This document shows, piece after piece, positions 8,780-14,124 of a DNA stretch of 64,000 nt; position 1 is the stretch's first letter; each line of letters begins with the position of its first letter. Position numbers and translations under genes: made by a program. The DNA comes from Thermoanaerobaculia bacterium (GTDB lineage: Bacteria; Acidobacteriota; Thermoanaerobaculia; Multivoradales; Multivoraceae): the NCBI GenBank assembly GCA_963666565.1, contig OY762911.1, forward strand, positions 4,064,001 through 4,128,000, read 5' to 3'. The notes beneath the pieces were generated by a model. It was not told the DNA's origin, ran no database searches, and was given only the letters and a program-made list of their open reading frames with translations.

Positions 8780-9772
8780 ATGATCGGACGGACCACGCTC
8801 GCTCTCACCGTGGCGGCCGCGCTGCTCGCGGCGCCCGCACTGGCAGCCGACGACTGGGAGACGCCGCGCACTCCCTGGGGCCACCCGGACCTGCAGGGCC
8901 TGTGGACGAACACGACCCTGACCCCCTTCGAGCGGCCGGTCGAGATGGGCGACAAGGCGTTCCTGACCGAGGAGGAGGTCGCTCAGGCCGAGGCGGCCCG
9001 CCAGGCGATGATCCAGAACCGGGCGGACCAGCCCGCGCAGAAGGCGGAGGCCGGCCAGAACGTCGGCGCCTACAACCTGCACTGGCTGGAACTCGGCACG
9101 AAGATCGTCGGCAGCAGGCGGACCTCCCTGGTCGTCGATCCGCCGAGCGGCCGCGTGCCGGTGCGGCCCGAGGCGCAGCAGGTGCGGGCCGACAACCTGG
9201 TCAAGATGTTCGACTCGTACGAACACATGAGCGTCTGGGACCGCTGCATCACCCGCGGCGTCCCCGGGCACCTCTTCCCGGCCGGCTACAACAACAACTA
9301 CCGGATCGCCCAGACGCCCGAGTACGTCGTCATCTACTCCGAGATGATCAACGACGTCCGCTTCATCCCGGTCGACGGCCGCGAGCGGATCCCCGAGGAC
9401 CTCCACCTCTGGAACGGCGACTCCCGCGGCCACTGGGACGGCGACACGCTCGTCGTCGAGACGAGGAACTTCTCCGACAAGGGCTGGATCGCCACCAGCG
9501 GCTCCCAGGGCCGGATCAAGGGGATCCCGGTCAGCACCGAGCTCGTCACGGTGGAGCGCTTCGCGCGCGTCGACGAGCACACCGTGGACTGGACGGTCAC
9601 GATCGAGGATCCGGTCAACTACACGGACGCCTGGACGGTGAACATCCCGCTCTACTTCGACCCGGACAACGAGATGTTCGAGTACGCCTGCCACGAAGGC
9701 AACTGGGCGGTCTACAACACGTTGAGCGGCGCCCGCCACCTGGAGAAGACGGGCGAGGACAGCAGCCCGTAG
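8780..9772 (+). CDS. secreted 'PDLxGxW...EYACHEGN' family protein (paralog 3)
   Basis: Signal peptide, TPWGHPDLQGLWT, DRCITRG, YNNNY, GDSRGHWDGDT, FEYACHEGN; GGAGGAG SD. Confidence 0.87.
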   Translation: MIGRTTLALTVAAALLAAPALAADDWETPRTPWGHPDLQGLWTNTTLTPFERPVEMGDKAFLTEEEVAQAEAARQAMIQNRADQPAQKAEAGQNVGAYNLHWLELGTKIVGSRRTSLVVDPPSGRVPVRPEAQQVRADNLVKMFDSYEHMSVWDRCITRGVPGHLFPAGYNNNYRIAQTPEYVVIYSEMINDVRFIPVDGRERIPEDLHLWNGDSRGHWDGDTLVVETRNFSDKGWIATSGSQGRIKGIPVSTELVTVERFARVDEHTVDWTVTIEDPVNYTDAWTVNIPLYFDPDNEMFEYACHEGNWAVYNTLSGARHLEKTGEDSSP

Positions 9773-9863
9773 ACGCGTCCGTCCGCGAGAGCGCCGCCAG
9801 TCCGCGCCCCGCGAGGAACCAGGCGACGCGACCGCGATCTCACGCAGCGCGAGGAACCACAAG

Positions 9864-10937
9864 ATGAGCTTCCCGATGAGTTTCGACCCTGGCCGCTTCC
9901 CCGTTCCCGTCCGCGACGACATGGCCGCGGCGCTCCGCGAATCCTGGGCCGACGTCGGCCGGCCCGGCGCCTGGTGGACCGGTCCCGAGCGAGTCGCCAT
10001 CGCGGGACTCGCCCGCGCCGAGCGCCTCCAGCGGAACCAGCCGCCGTGGACCCGCGACCGTTCGCGGGCGCCGGCGGCGCCCCTGCCCGAAAAGGCCGTC
10101 GAAGCGGCCCGGAAGATCGGCGCCGACCCGATGCACCTTGACCGCGAGTGGGCCGACGCCGTCATCGCCGAAATCGGCGACGCGCCCTACGTCGAACTCG
10201 CCTCGGTCGTCGTGACGACGGTCGCCGCCGACGCCTTCTGCGAGGCGATGGGGATCGACCCCGAGCCCCTGCCGGCGCCCGAAGCCGGCGAGCCGACCCG
10301 CGAGCGGCCCGACAACCTGAGCGACATCGGGGCCTGGGTGCCGGTCCAGGTCATCGACTGGAAGCGCGCAAACGTGGCGCGCGCGCTCAGCCTGGCGCCA
10401 GAGGGCGTCCGCACGTTCTTCCGCATGGTCGCCGCCATGTACTCGGGCACGGCCACCGACTTCGAGAAGATGGTGTGGGACCACCGGCCGCTCCCGCGGC
10501 CCCAGGTCGAGCTGATCGCGGCCAGGGTCTCGGCCCTCAACGAGTGCTTCTACTGAACCACCGCCCACACCATGCTGCTCCGGGCGAGCAGCAACGCAGC
10601 CGGAACGGAAGTGGACCTGAGCGCGACGGTGGAGGACACTGCTGACAGCGGGGTCGAGAACGGCGCGGCTCTGACGGCCTTCGCGGAAGCGGTCGTCCGG
10701 GCAACGGACGATCTGGATGCGGTCCGCGCGCGGGCGCTCGAGACGCTGGGGCCGGAGAAGTTCGTCGAGGCCGCCGCCACCGTCGGCATCTTCAACGGCC
10801 TGGTCCGCGTCGCCGACTCCACCGGCATCCCCAGCGACACGATGATGCTCGAAGGCACCGCCGACGTCCGCGGCGACCTCGGCATCAACCGCTGGGCCGG
10901 CGCCAAGGCCTCCGGCGTCGCCGAGGCGCGCGCGTAG
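9864..10937 (+). CDS. AhpD/CMD-like alkylhydroperoxidase-related selenoprotein (UGA at 10554-10556 read as Sec), about 357 aa
   Basis: ORFs 9864-10556 and 10572-10937 are in the same frame. The junction reads ELIAARVSALNEC-F-Y-TGA-TTAH, matching AhpD ExxxxxxSxxNxCxxCxxxH; SECIS-like hairpin downstream. Confidence 0.85.
10573..10593 (+). promoter_or_regulatory. candidate bacterial SECIS element
   Basis: TGCTGCTC-CGGGC-GAGCAGCA: perfect 8-bp stem with a G-rich loop, starting 16 nt after the in-frame UGA. Confidence 0.75.
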
Positions 10938-10970
10938 CGTCGGGGACGCAGCACCCGCCGGTTCGCGGCT

Positions 10971-11378
10971 CTACCGGGCGGCTTCGGCGAGCCAGTTCTC
11001 CACGCGCAGACCGTCCACGCGGCCAAACTCCCTCTCGTTGTTCGTCACCAGCGTGGCGTGAGCGCCTCGGGCGTGGGCCGCAATCAGAAGGTCGTTCGCT
11101 CCTATCGTCTGGCCGCGCCGCACAAGCTCCTGGCGGATCTTGCCGTAGCGAACGCCAGCCTCGGCATCGAACGGCAGGATGTCGAGATCGAGACAGAAGG
11201 CCTGAAGCTCCCGCTCATTCTCTTCAACCCGAGCCGAGTGCGCGACGCCGAAGCACAGTTCCGCGTGCGTGATGGCGGAGATGCACACGCTGGAGGCGTT
11301 CTCCTCGAACTTCCGCCTCAGACCCTGATCGCGCTCGTTGATCAGGTAGATGCACATGTCCGTGTCCAGCATGAACAT
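10971..11378 (-). CDS. vapC: VapC PIN-domain toxin
   Basis: MFMLDTDMCIY...SAITHAEL...IGANDLLIAAHA...LVTNNEREF.RVDGL.VENW. Confidence 0.93.
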   Translation of the reverse strand: MFMLDTDMCIYLINERDQGLRRKFEENASSVCISAITHAELCFGVAHSARVEENERELQAFCLDLDILPFDAEAGVRYGKIRQELVRRGQTIGANDLLIAAHARGAHATLVTNNEREFGRVDGLRVENWLAEAAR

Positions 11379-11626
11379 CAGCGGAGATCGTCCCGCTCCT
11401 CAAGAGGCGGCTGGTTGCGCGCGGGAAGGCTCCCTCGGGACCTCGCATCGAAGTACGCGCCCCAGTTCTTCCCGCGCGGAAGCAACGTAAGCCGATCCCC
11501 TTCCTGGATCACCTCCACCTCGGAGGTCGCGAACCGGCACGCCGCCGGCAGCCGTACCGCCTGACTGCGTCCGCTCCAGAACACCTTGGCGACCCCTCTG
11601 TAGTCCGGCTCCTTGTTCATTGGCAC
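11378..11626 (-). CDS. vapB: VapB (AbrB/MazE-fold) antitoxin
   Basis: AKVFWSGRSQAVRLP...EVEVIQEGDRLTLLP; TGATG-coupled to vapC. Confidence 0.92.
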   Translation of the reverse strand: MPMNKEPDYRGVAKVFWSGRSQAVRLPAACRFATSEVEVIQEGDRLTLLPRGKNWGAYFDARSRGSLPARNQPPLEERDDLR

Positions 11627-11657
11627 TCCTCACGTCGATCTCAGAGTTTGCCTCCGG

Positions 11658-11677
11658 GAGATATATCACGAGATATA
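11658..11677. promoter_or_regulatory. putative vapBC operator/promoter
   Basis: GAGATATA-tcac-GAGATATA repeat containing the palindrome GATATATC, upstream of vapB in an otherwise GC-rich region. Confidence 0.45.
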
Positions 11678-11952
11678 CCGTCCGGCTGGCTCGCGGCGCG
11701 GAGAAGCCTCCGACGTCAAGGGGTGCCGGCGCAAAGCTCACCGAAGCGACAACTCCAGGGCTGCTCCCCTGCCCATGACCGCAAACAACCGGAGAACGCC
11801 GGTACCGGCCGACGCCTGGTCGACGGGGGCCAGGAGTTCGAATCCCGTCCGGTCCATGCCGGTGCCGACACGACGCTCCGAGTTGCCGGGGCCATCCCCG
11901 TTCGCGCTCGTGGCTGCCAGAAAAGCGCCGTCGCGATAGAGGACGATCTGGC

Positions 11953-12336
11953 GCGCCGGCGGCGCCCCTGCCCGAAAAGGCCGTCGAAGCGGCCCGGAAG
12001 ATCGGCGCCGACCCGATGCACCTTGACCGCGAGTGGGCCGACGCCGTCATCGCCGAAATCGGCGACGCGCCCTACGTCGAACTCGCCTCGGTCGTCGTGA
12101 CGACGGTCGCCGCCGACGCCTTCTGCGAGGCGATGGGGATCGACCCCGAGCCCCTGCCGGCGCCCGAAGCCGGCGAGCCGACCCGCGAGCGGCCCGACAA
12201 CCTGGGCGAAATCGGGGCCTGGGTGCCGGTCCAGGTCATCGATTGGAAGCGCGCAAACGTGGCGCGCGCGCTCAGCCTGGCGCCGGAGGGCGTCCGCACG
12301 TTCTTCCGCATGGTCGCCGCCATGTACTCGGGCACG
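11953..12336 (+). pseudogene. 384-bp direct duplicate of an internal part (10068-10451) of the selenoprotein gene
   Basis: Near-identical sequence with about 4 substitutions (e.g. LSDI to LGEI); lacks the start and the Sec-containing end. Confidence 0.9.
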
Positions 12337-12519
12337 CCCCTCTCCCGGACCGCTCGGGCTGGTCGTCGCAGGTGGCTGGCGCCGGACGGTTGGCGAGGCT
12401 GCGTGGGCGGAGGGGATCTGGAGGCCGGGGGCGGGTCGGGGGATGGCGACCGGGCAGATCCGGGCTCAGGGGGGTCGGCGACGCCGGGCGGGTGAAGGTG
12501 ACCCTGAGTTTGGCGCGGG

Positions 12520-14124
12520 TCAGGGGCAGGCCACACTGTAGATCCTGGCTTCAGAGAAGGCGGCGAGGGGTTGGAGGAGTGGGTAGGGATGGTGCCTGCC
12601 GGCGCGGGCGTCGGCGATGAAGGGGCCGAGCCAGTCGCTGGGGTCTTCGTCGGAACGGGCGCCGCCGAGTTGGACGGTGGGACGGACGACGAGGAGGAGG
12701 CGGTCGAAGTCGGGGCAGTGGCGGTCGGCGATTCGTTCGAGGGTCGGGTAGGTCAGGATCTCGGTGTAGGGCAGGCCGGCGTAGGAGATGGCGTAGCGGC
12801 CCGGGAAGAGGAAGGGAACGTCCATCGTGCCGCCGCCGATGACCAGATCGCCGGGGCCGGTGTGGTCGCGCAGCCATTGCTGGCGCTCGCTTCGGAACTC
12901 CATGGCGCGCGCGTCGCGGCCGGAGGACCGGAGGGCGGACTCGCGGACGAATGCGGCACCGAAGCAGATGATGAAGATGGCGAACGGCAGCCAGGCGAGT
13001 CGGCGCGCCCGCGGCAGGGCCCCGGCGACCAGGGCACCGAACAGCGGGATGAGGGGAACAGTGGCGGGAAGGGCAAGACGCGCGCCGATGGGATCGAGGT
13101 TGGCCTGGGCGCCGCGCCAGACGAGGGCCGTGAGATAGAGGACGGCCCAGGCGCCGATCAGCAGCGGCAGAGGACCCGATAGCCGGGAAAGCGATCCGTT
13201 GCGCGCGGCGAGCGCCACCAGGAGCGACAGTGCGGCGAGCAGGATGGCGGCGTCAGGCCAGTTCCCCACCGTGGTCGAGCGCCAGGCGCCAAGGAGCGCG
13301 GTGACGGCGAGACTCAGGTTCTCGCCGAGCGATCGCACCGCCGGCATCGCCGCCGGCAGCAGGCGGCCTTCGACCGCCAGGTTGCGGACCAGGATGGCGG
13401 CGATGGGGGCCAGAGCGCCGGCGGTGAGGGCGGCGGAGGCCGACCACCTCGCCACGCCGCGGCCTCGACTCGAATGCGGCTCGGAAGACCCTCTCCCGCT
13501 GGCGCGGCCGCCCCACCACAGCGCCGCGACGCCCAGGAGCGGCAGCGGCCACAGCGCGTAGCGGACACAGATGGCCGCGCCTGCGAGCAAGCCGAGAGCG
13601 AGGGCTCGCCGGAGTTCGAGTAGCCGATCGAGCAGCAGGAAGAACAGGAGCACCACGGCGACGGCGAGGCACTCGCTCAGAGCCGCTTGACCCAGATCGG
13701 TCAGCGGAACGAAGACGAGGGCGGCGCCGAGTCCGATCGCTCCGGCAGCGGAACCTCCGATCCGTTGCCCGAGAAGGTAGACCAGCAGCAGAATCGCGGC
13801 GTAGGCCAGCGCGGAAACGACGAGCGCCGCGTCGACGGCTTCGATCCCCAACTTCGAGAGAAGCGCAATGGCGAGCGGATATCCGGGTGGCTGAGCCGTG
13901 AAGGCCGACGGCAGGTCGAGGTCGCCGAACAGGTAGAACGGCTGGTTGAAGCCGCCGGTCGACTGCGTCAGCCCGTCGCCGGCTACCACCTGTCGCGCGA
14001 CGTCGACGTAGTTCATCGAGTCCGCCGTGAACGCGCGGACGCGGATCAGCGAGTTCGCGGCGAACAACGCGACGTAGGCGAGGCCAAGCGCCGCCAGGGC
14101 GGCGCCGACCTTCGGCCCGCGCAT
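12520..14124 (-). CDS. polytopic membrane protein, GT-C (ArnT/PMT-like) glycosyltransferase
   Basis: MRGPKVG..., DSMNYVDVARQVVAGDGL, QPPGYPL, LSE.L, many TM helices, C-terminal soluble domain; GGAG SD. Confidence 0.75.
   Translation of the reverse strand: MRGPKVGAALAALGLAYVALFAANSLIRVRAFTADSMNYVDVARQVVAGDGLTQSTGGFNQPFYLFGDLDLPSAFTAQPPGYPLAIALLSKLGIEAVDAALVVSALAYAAILLLVYLLGQRIGGSAAGAIGLGAALVFVPLTDLGQAALSECLAVAVVLLFFLLLDRLLELRRALALGLLAGAAICVRYALWPLPLLGVAALWWGGRASGRGSSEPHSSRGRGVARWSASAALTAGALAPIAAILVRNLAVEGRLLPAAMPAVRSLGENLSLAVTALLGAWRSTTVGNWPDAAILLAALSLLVALAARNGSLSRLSGPLPLLIGAWAVLYLTALVWRGAQANLDPIGARLALPATVPLIPLFGALVAGALPRARRLAWLPFAIFIICFGAAFVRESALRSSGRDARAMEFRSERQQWLRDHTGPGDLVIGGGTMDVPFLFPGRYAISYAGLPYTEILTYPTLERIADRHCPDFDRLLLVVRPTVQLGGARSDEDPSDWLGPFIADARAGRHHPYPLLQPLAAFSEARIYSVACP

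Follow-up and report, generated by a model that had tools for sequence, protein, structure and literature searches.

A stretch of 64,000 nucleotides from the genome of a Thermoanaerobaculia bacterium (GenBank assembly GCA_963666565.1, contig OY762911.1, positions 4,064,001 to 4,128,000 of the forward strand), hereafter the window, carries on its plus strand, at 9864-10937, a gene that had been proposed from its letters alone to be a hidden selenoprotein gene. With high confidence, we read it as one gene encoding a selenoprotein of 357 residues in the family NF041238, with selenocysteine (Sec) inserted at the UGA at 10554 by means of the hairpin at 10573-10593, the predicted Sec insertion sequence (SECIS) element. 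The features on which the argument turns are as follows.

9864-10937, plus strand: coding sequence of the AhpD-related CFYU(T) selenoprotein, 357 codons including UGA-231, stop codon TAG at 10935-10937

10554-10556, plus strand: UGA predicted to encode selenocysteine (U231) as the second residue of the CxxU redox motif, from TGA conservation and from Cys in homologs

10573-10593, plus strand: predicted SECIS hairpin, an 8-bp stem and the 5-nt loop CGGGC, with the core kept across the family at 10575-10591 and the invariant loop G at 10582

10509-10568, plus strand: codons of the active-site helix-turn-helix, with E216 (10509), C228 (10545), Y230 (10551), U231 (10554) and H235 (10566)

Calling of open reading frames (ORFs) with translation table 11 finds in this one frame two ORFs, at 9864-10556 (230 aa, ending in ...ALNECFY) and at 10572-10937 (121 aa), separated by nothing but the TGA and the 15 nt ACC ACC GCC CAC ACC. 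The TGA stands in frame within C-F-Y-[TGA]-T-T-A-H (ECFY-TGA-TTAH, 10542-10568), and reading through it yields the junction ...ELIAARVSALNECFY-U-TTAHTMLLR (that is, ...RVSALNECFY-U-TTAHTMLLRAS...) and a product of 357 aa terminating at the TAG. A perfect hairpin, TGCTGCTC/CGGGC/GAGCAGCA, starts 16 nt after the TGA. The two in-frame ORFs with their short gap, the junction and the hairpin had all been described in the original prediction, and each is present in the sequence as described. The sequence AGGA is found 8-11 nt 5' of the ATG at 9864; the ATG at 9876 is an alternative start, and a database protein of 95% identity (P0002) starts at the equivalent of M5. Just 5' of the start codon, a 12-mer, CGCGAGGAACCA, occurs twice in the leader (9810-9821 and 9848-9859, 38 nt apart), the second copy providing the AGGA of the likely ribosome-binding site.

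As to the family, the read-through product matches the NCBIfam model NF041238 (AhpD_rel_CFYUT, alkylhydroperoxidase-related (seleno)protein, an equivalog) with 336.7 bits against a cut-off of 175 (E = 1.7e-100), residues 16-344 aligning with positions 1-355 of the 357-position model, and in a six-frame search of the genome the score is 327.9 bits, with one TGA within the match. Motif and length are the same in the gene and in the model, with no substantive difference between them. The Pfam domain CMD (PF02627) is recognized at residues 202-272 (34 bits, gathering score 23), and for this the two ORFs must be joined, the first alone staying below the gathering score, at 19.7 bits, and the second giving nothing. 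Besides NF041238, only subfamily and domain models of NCBIfam match, namely TIGR01926 (39.8 bits, below its cut-off of 81.8) and the AhpD core-domain model TIGR00778 (33 bits), which alone of these clears its cut-off (27.8), and no AhpD equivalog model of NCBIfam is matched at E <= 1. As no AhpD equivalog matches and no ahpC or other partner is a conserved neighbor, the protein is filed under NF041238 and the AhpD-like superfamily, and not as a canonical AhpD.

The UGA is conserved among relatives. In 61 related genomes, including the window's own, all of the 39 matches to NF041238 above the cut-off have a single TGA as their only stop. Of 401 genomes sampled evenly over the phylum, 12 have the family, with one TGA in each of their 14 matches, so that every member seen above the cut-off possesses it. 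The motif C-F-Y-TGA-T is found in 33 of the 33 genus loci extracted, four of which (L024-L027) represent a second paralog group; these loci were collected with a relaxed motif pattern, the initial one (NEC..U) having been too strict (7 loci). This paralog (from G033, G009, G020, and G011) scores about 425 bits and is closer to the NF041238 model than is the window gene. Another form in the genus (G035, G025, G290; L066) matches only positions 111-357 of the model, inside a 553-aa open frame, and may be a fusion; G035 also has a copy in two pieces, which may be a pseudogene.

More distant relatives were collected by a pattern scan of one genome per species for 185,579 species, which gave 431 loci, of which 80 were kept. 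These represent Acidobacteriota (Thermoanaerobaculia, "Candidatus Multivorans"), at 60-83% identity, as well as Myxococcota, Verrucomicrobia-type Opitutales, Pseudomonadales, Spirochaetaceae, Actinomycetota (Acidimicrobiia), and Chloroflexota (Dehalococcoidia), at 38-50% identity, six or more phyla overall. The 80 loci hold 98 copies of the gene, 18 loci having a tandem pair, and TGA follows CFY in 97 of the 98, the lone exception being a TTA on a 2.3-kb contig, 30 nt short of its end. Taking the genus and the distant loci together, TGA occupies the same codon in 130 of 131 copies, TAA or TAG occurs in none, and the spacing between the TGA and the conserved T-x-x-H is always zero. A homolog of the C-terminal ORF is present in all 80 loci, thus coding is conserved on either side of the TGA. 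In the tandem pairs of Dehalococcoidia/Chloroflexota (L088, L089, L091, L095, L100-L102, L104, L105, L107, L108, L110, L112, L124, L130, L137, and L142, and also L092), the copies lie about 1.1 kb apart, each with its own TGA and hairpin, and differ in loop type (CGUGA versus GGUCG).

The same position is occupied by Cys in distant homologs. An exhaustive HMMER search against 1.84 billion representatives gave 1458 matches at E <= 0.001, with 150 listed, many of which end at query residue 230. From these 150, 41 representatives of at least 315 aa, with matches crossing residue 231, were picked by eye (the shorter spanning sequences P0191 and P0195 being omitted), and in their alignment 35 have Cys in the U231 column, three have Gly, two Ser, and one Leu, within the consensus N-x-C-F-Y-C-x-x-x-H. 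Identity between these Cys forms and the window protein is 27-39%. No Cys form was seen among closer relatives, and Cys appears only in homologs below about 41% identity, within the limits set by recruitment through the ECFY pattern. As to gene calling, 120 of 120 listed database homologs end in ...CFY, including entries that bear the name of the selenoprotein family.

The genome, a single 4.79-Mb contig of 97% completeness, encodes SelA (430.7 bits, cut-off 267.9), SelB (319.5 bits, cut-off 242.25), and SelD (219.7 summed bits, cut-off 125), along with a 99-nt tRNA that is recognized both by the Rfam tRNA-Sec model (74.1 bits) and by ARAGORN (tRNA-SeC, anticodon TCA). The SelD follows a pyridine-nucleotide-disulfide-oxidoreductase domain within one fused protein (Pyr_redox_2 + AIRS + AIRS_C, 671 aa; G000:C1:4552628-4556560, positions 55-2070 of locus L010, plus strand) and has a C-G-G-C motif at the site where some SelD proteins have Sec; this Ndh-SelD fusion type is mentioned in an earlier survey (PMC2398784). 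A genome scan for an in-frame TGA followed by a hairpin gave 1663 raw candidates, reduced to 20 by a filter on codon-position G+C, and 8 of these were scanned against NCBIfam. One read-through product matched the WAxxUGC_long family (485.8 bits, cut-off 300), and the UGSC family was matched twice (127.7 and 151 bits, cut-off 125), while Prx-like (W-U-P-Y-C), PrxQ-like (F-T-A-G-U-T, a TxxU), and PrdB-like (U-P-V-C) proteins fell below the cut-offs. These six further TGA genes are located on G000:C1 at 1177399(+), 4259244(-), 2172334(-), 1133915(+), 2998258(-), and 3877257(-) (L148, L149, and L152-L155). Two other candidates were rejected, L147, for which NCBIfam gave no family match, and L151, whose family matches lie at residues 655-800, away from the TGA (at about residue 401). 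The loops of the further genes (GGUCG, AGUCU, AGUGU, AGGCU, CGUGG) share the form N-G-K-N-N, an agreement partly built in, since the scan demanded a G in the first three loop bases. Evidently, Sec decoding is in use in this organism and, the scan being crude, its selenoproteome is probably larger than what was found.

The predictions that had been made from the letters alone fare well against these data. That the two ORFs make up one 357-aa selenoenzyme is supported by the end-to-end match to NF041238, by the conserved TGA, by the Cys of distant homologs and by the lack of UAA or UAG in 131 copies. The alignment of homologs mostly shows C or U at position 231, as had been expected, with conservation on either side (Cys in 35 of 41; both halves in 80 of 80 loci). 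Standard annotation does split the gene, as anticipated, the listed homologs all ending in ...CFY, though NCBI has a curated model and a name for the family. The Sec machinery that the organism was expected to encode is there, selA, selB, selD and tRNA-Sec being present. The findings named in advance as speaking against a selenoprotein were homologs consistently made of two separate genes with variable spacing or with UAA or UAG stops at this position, or a complete genome devoid of selABC; the spacing is zero, no such stops occur, and the genes are present. The caution that the family might not be new was correct, the family being already curated as NF041238, under a name that contains the very motif noticed in the original prediction.

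As to the hairpin, it is by itself unremarkable, and therefore the case rests on comparison with relatives. Perfect 8-bp hairpins number 38 in the window (68.7% G+C), and among the 593 TGA trinucleotides there, 4 are followed by such a hairpin at a distance of 10-25 nt. The same hairpin is found at the same offset in all the relatives compared. In a gap-free alignment of 80 distinct 57-nt stretches from the TGA onward, the named stem has standard pairs in 87.8% of 640 cells, versus 23-65% in controls in which the stem was slid, and the three apical pairs (C-G, U-A, C-G) and the G at loop position 2 are invariant (80 of 80). In all 98 genes loop position 3 holds G or U, the loop thus reading N-G-(G/U)-N-N throughout. 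In the fdhF element of E. coli, recognition by SelB is via the G-U in the apical loop.

Codon choice was measured in 98 distinct genes (the window gene and 97 TGA copies), with the same genes serving as the background. The Leu codon at +8 is CTC in 98 of 98, versus a background of 36.5% CTC in 2804 Leu codons, and the Ser codon at +11 is AGC or AGT in all 96 cases of Ser, versus 36% AGY in 1686 Ser codons. At +9, all 75 Arg codons are either CGT or CGG and none is CGC, which leads among Arg codons in the background (45%), and the Ala codon at +10 is GCG in 43 of 43 (background 34%). This choice among synonymous codons indicates that the hairpin is under selection at the RNA level.

A number of observations weigh against the selenoprotein reading. 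The folding energy of the single sequence is unexceptional, a 76-nt fold having z = -0.27 versus dinucleotide shuffles. Strict covariation is weak, with double changes in 3 of the 8 pairs, a value reached by 38 of 500 shuffles, and a stem slid by +3 has the higher covariation score (0.218 versus 0.135), an effect of codon periodicity. The stem overlaps the conserved Leu-Leu...Ser-Ser codons, and therefore the RNA argument rests mainly on the fixation of synonymous sites. Rfam gives no family match at 10300-10800 at E <= 10, other than a chance one to xerDC (14.5 bits). The pattern used in the scan across species ended in ...ECFY, and it could have passed over close Cys-form relatives in which another motif precedes the position. 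Neither in the window nor in the 80 distant loci does an ahpC or any other conserved partner adjoin the gene. Finally, the selenium in the protein is itself inferred from sequence.

The most obvious alternative takes the ORF calls at face value: two separate genes, or one gene killed by a nonsense mutation, giving a 230-aa N-terminal protein and a 121-aa protein initiated at the ATG at 10572. Table-11 calling does yield exactly these two ORFs, and public gene calls list the pieces separately, the N-terminal ones in all 120 of the listed cases and C-terminal ones such as P0248 and P0253. However, the stop is always TGA and at the same codon, never TAA or TAG, and the 15 nt between it and the ATG encode the conserved T-x-x-H, with the catalytic His. 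Met 237 is replaced in relatives by Gly, Ser, Arg, Leu, Asn, or Thr, and thus the supposed downstream gene has no conserved restart codon. Moreover, the CMD domain and the NF041238 model both continue across the stop, and a pseudogene would not stay conserved across phyla. We regard this alternative as effectively refuted, and its probability as next to nil. Similarly disfavored, as exceedingly improbable, is the possibility that the gene is a real selenoprotein gene but is degrading in this genome, the vapBC insertion and a partial duplicate marking a rearranged and possibly non-functional locus. It is true that an insert of about 1.5 kb, unique to this genome and containing a 387-nt copy of the interior of the gene, begins within 1-30 nt of the stop codon. 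However, it begins past that codon, the stop and the hairpin are intact, and the full copy has no frameshift and matches the model over its full length, with scores (327.9-336.7 bits) like those of orthologs.

A further alternative accepts a single read-through protein but has near-cognate suppression or a reassigned code place one of the standard amino acids (Cys, Trp, or Gly) at the UGA. Cys would be chemically acceptable at the site, being found there in 35 of 41 homologs. Against this possibility, the genome maintains a complete dedicated Sec system and several genes of known selenoprotein families with TGA at the redox position, and the hairpin, with its bacterial SECIS hallmark, lies at a fixed offset and is under selection on synonymous sites, while a reassigned TGA would need no hairpin at all. 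This alternative appears very improbable. The reading of 9864-10937 as one gene with Sec at the UGA is thus the one we follow here.

The fold of the protein was modeled with AlphaFold2 from an alignment of 42 sequences, with Cys in place of Sec. The model is all-helical, with a mean predicted local distance difference test score (pLDDT) of 92.5 and a predicted template modeling score (pTM) of 0.92, and in it helices 212-225 and 229-245 flank the redox motif, which lies at their junction. In a profile search of the sequences in the PDB, residues from about 190 to 350 match AhpD or "peroxidase-related" proteins of about 190 aa, with 6k40 (1e-19) followed by 2pfx, 3c1l, 2oyo, and 2prr, and Foldseek agrees with the AhpD-type matches, such structures covering residues from about 92 to 340. 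In both alignments considered (A1 and A3), E216, C228 and H235 vary hardly or not at all. The proton relay of AhpD has been described for E118/C130/H132/C133/H137 of the Mycobacterium tuberculosis protein and for E36/C48/Y50/C51/H55 of PA0269 (PMC3141380), and the spacing of E216/C228/Y230/U231/H235, E-x11-C-x-Y-U-x3-H, equals that of both relays as given there, with Sec in place of the second Cys.

A mechanism may be proposed as follows. When the ribosome reaches the UGA at 10554, the hairpin, with its small apical loop of an invariant G followed by G or U, would recruit SelB carrying Sec-tRNA(Sec), selenocysteine would be inserted, and translation would continue for another 126 codons. The C-terminal 190 or so residues would make up a "peroxidase-related" domain of the AhpD/CMD type, in which the redox pair C228-x-x-U231 opens a helix, beside the putative proton-relay residues E216, Y230, and H235. 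Nucleophilic attack would come from Sec, with C228 resolving, and a selenenylsulfide would form between the two. In M. tuberculosis AhpD, the second Cys of the pair, replaced here by Sec, is the one that attacks AhpC. The protein is most likely a selenol/thiol oxidoreductase, whose target may be a partner of the peroxiredoxin type or, reduced directly, a (hydro)peroxide or a disulfide.

In its predicted fold the protein has two lobes and resembles Sestrin2. Compared to human Sestrin2 (5cuf, 5dj4, 5t0n), the protein shows 12% identity and has its redox motif in the C-terminal lobe. No sestrin match in Pfam was obtained for the read-through protein at E <= 1, and hhalign of residues 1-175 against 176-357 gives a probability of 7.8%, offering no sequence support for an internal duplication. 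The "two-lobed, sestrin-like" description is therefore kept as a lead only, open to common descent as well as to convergent duplication. A broader proposal, that the family as a whole represents a bacterial single-chain, two-lobed, "sestrin-like" enzyme of the AhpD fold, with the relay in the C-terminal lobe only and with an essentially obligate dependence on selenium, is tentative, and we consider it somewhat unlikely. In the literature searched, as judged from titles and the openings of abstracts, no paper linking bacterial AhpD-type selenoproteins to sestrin was found.

Proteins of this kind have been in print for some time. A 2005 paper described AhpD-like CxxU selenoproteins from the Sargasso Sea (Zhang, Fomenko and Gladyshev, PMC1088965), the survey of the Global Ocean Sampling data lists "AhpD-like 1" (COG2128) and "AhpD-like 2" (pfam02627) (Zhang and Gladyshev 2008, PMC2398784), and a 2026 database paper uses the AhpD-like family as its browsing example (PMC13326102). 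The published families, as characterized there, likewise have CxxU, CMD/AhpD homology, Cys homologs, and a SECIS whose small apical loop contains a G; the 357-aa two-lobed form may correspond to either "AhpD-like 1" or "AhpD-like 2." Unlike AhpD of M. tuberculosis (1gu9/1knc) and PA0269 of P. aeruginosa (2o4d), the protein has Sec for the second Cys, double the length and an additional N-terminal region, and no ahpC neighbor. The "peroxidase-related enzymes" of TIGR01926 (2pfx, 2prr, 3c1l, 2oyo, and 6k40 of D. radiodurans), of about 190 aa, differ in being single-domain proteins with Cys and not Sec. The gene is thus an ordinary member of a catalogued family, of a kind in print since 2005, and it is not new.

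The neighbors of the gene in the window are an epimerase, a secreted protein, and vapBC, and each recurs in only 1-5 of the 80 distant loci. Clustering of the flanking ORFs shows lineage-specific neighbors only, the maximum being an enoyl-CoA-hydratase-like ORF shared by 23 of the 80 loci, and conserved neighbors were rejected as a clue to the substrate, as none recurs across phyla. The upstream gene (8780-9772, plus strand) encodes 330 aa; the N-terminus resembles a signal peptide, and Pfam gives no match. Its synteny with the selenoprotein gene holds across the whole genus, at 84-93% nucleotide identity, and does not extend beyond close relatives. Downstream, most relatives have, some 20-250 nt after the selenoprotein gene, a homolog of the window from about 12,460 to 13,900, and in a few (e.g., L030, L065, and L069) the next homologous stretch corresponds to the window from about 14,200 onward. 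The 1.5-kb insert spans about 10,945-12,460, and none was seen in the relatives compared. The region 10938-12520, in which it lies, contains the following.

10971-11378, minus strand: vapC (PIN domain)

11378-11626, minus strand: vapB (MazE-type), with a 90% paralog elsewhere in the genome

326 nt between vapB and the gene-fragment copy: sequence without assignment

11953-12339: copy of the gene interior, 387 nt, 98.7% identical to 10068-10454

The fragment copy includes neither the UGA nor the hairpin, and the intact gene is undisturbed by the vapBC insert. Such a lone interior fragment (model positions 63-205) occurs in no other of the 61 related genomes, the nearest cases being the split copy in G035 and a short C-terminal piece on another contig of G017.

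In conclusion, the gene presents a clean example of a gene cut in two by ORF callers. Some database relatives are already named after the NF041238 family and, since the listed relatives, even those so named, stop at ...CFY, read-through models are still inconsistently applied to metagenome-assembled genomes. The comparison across the family provides a tight, family-specific SECIS consensus, CUC-N-G-K-N-N-GAG, with the base of the stem 16 nt past the UGA. A well-supported selenoprotein is added to an Acidobacteriota-type genome that also has UGSC, WAxxUGC, Prx-type, and PrdB-like candidates and an Ndh-SelD fusion. If the likeness of the whole chain to Sestrin2 did reflect descent, the family would be the counterpart, among prokaryotes, of the sestrin architecture, its redox center being built on Sec.

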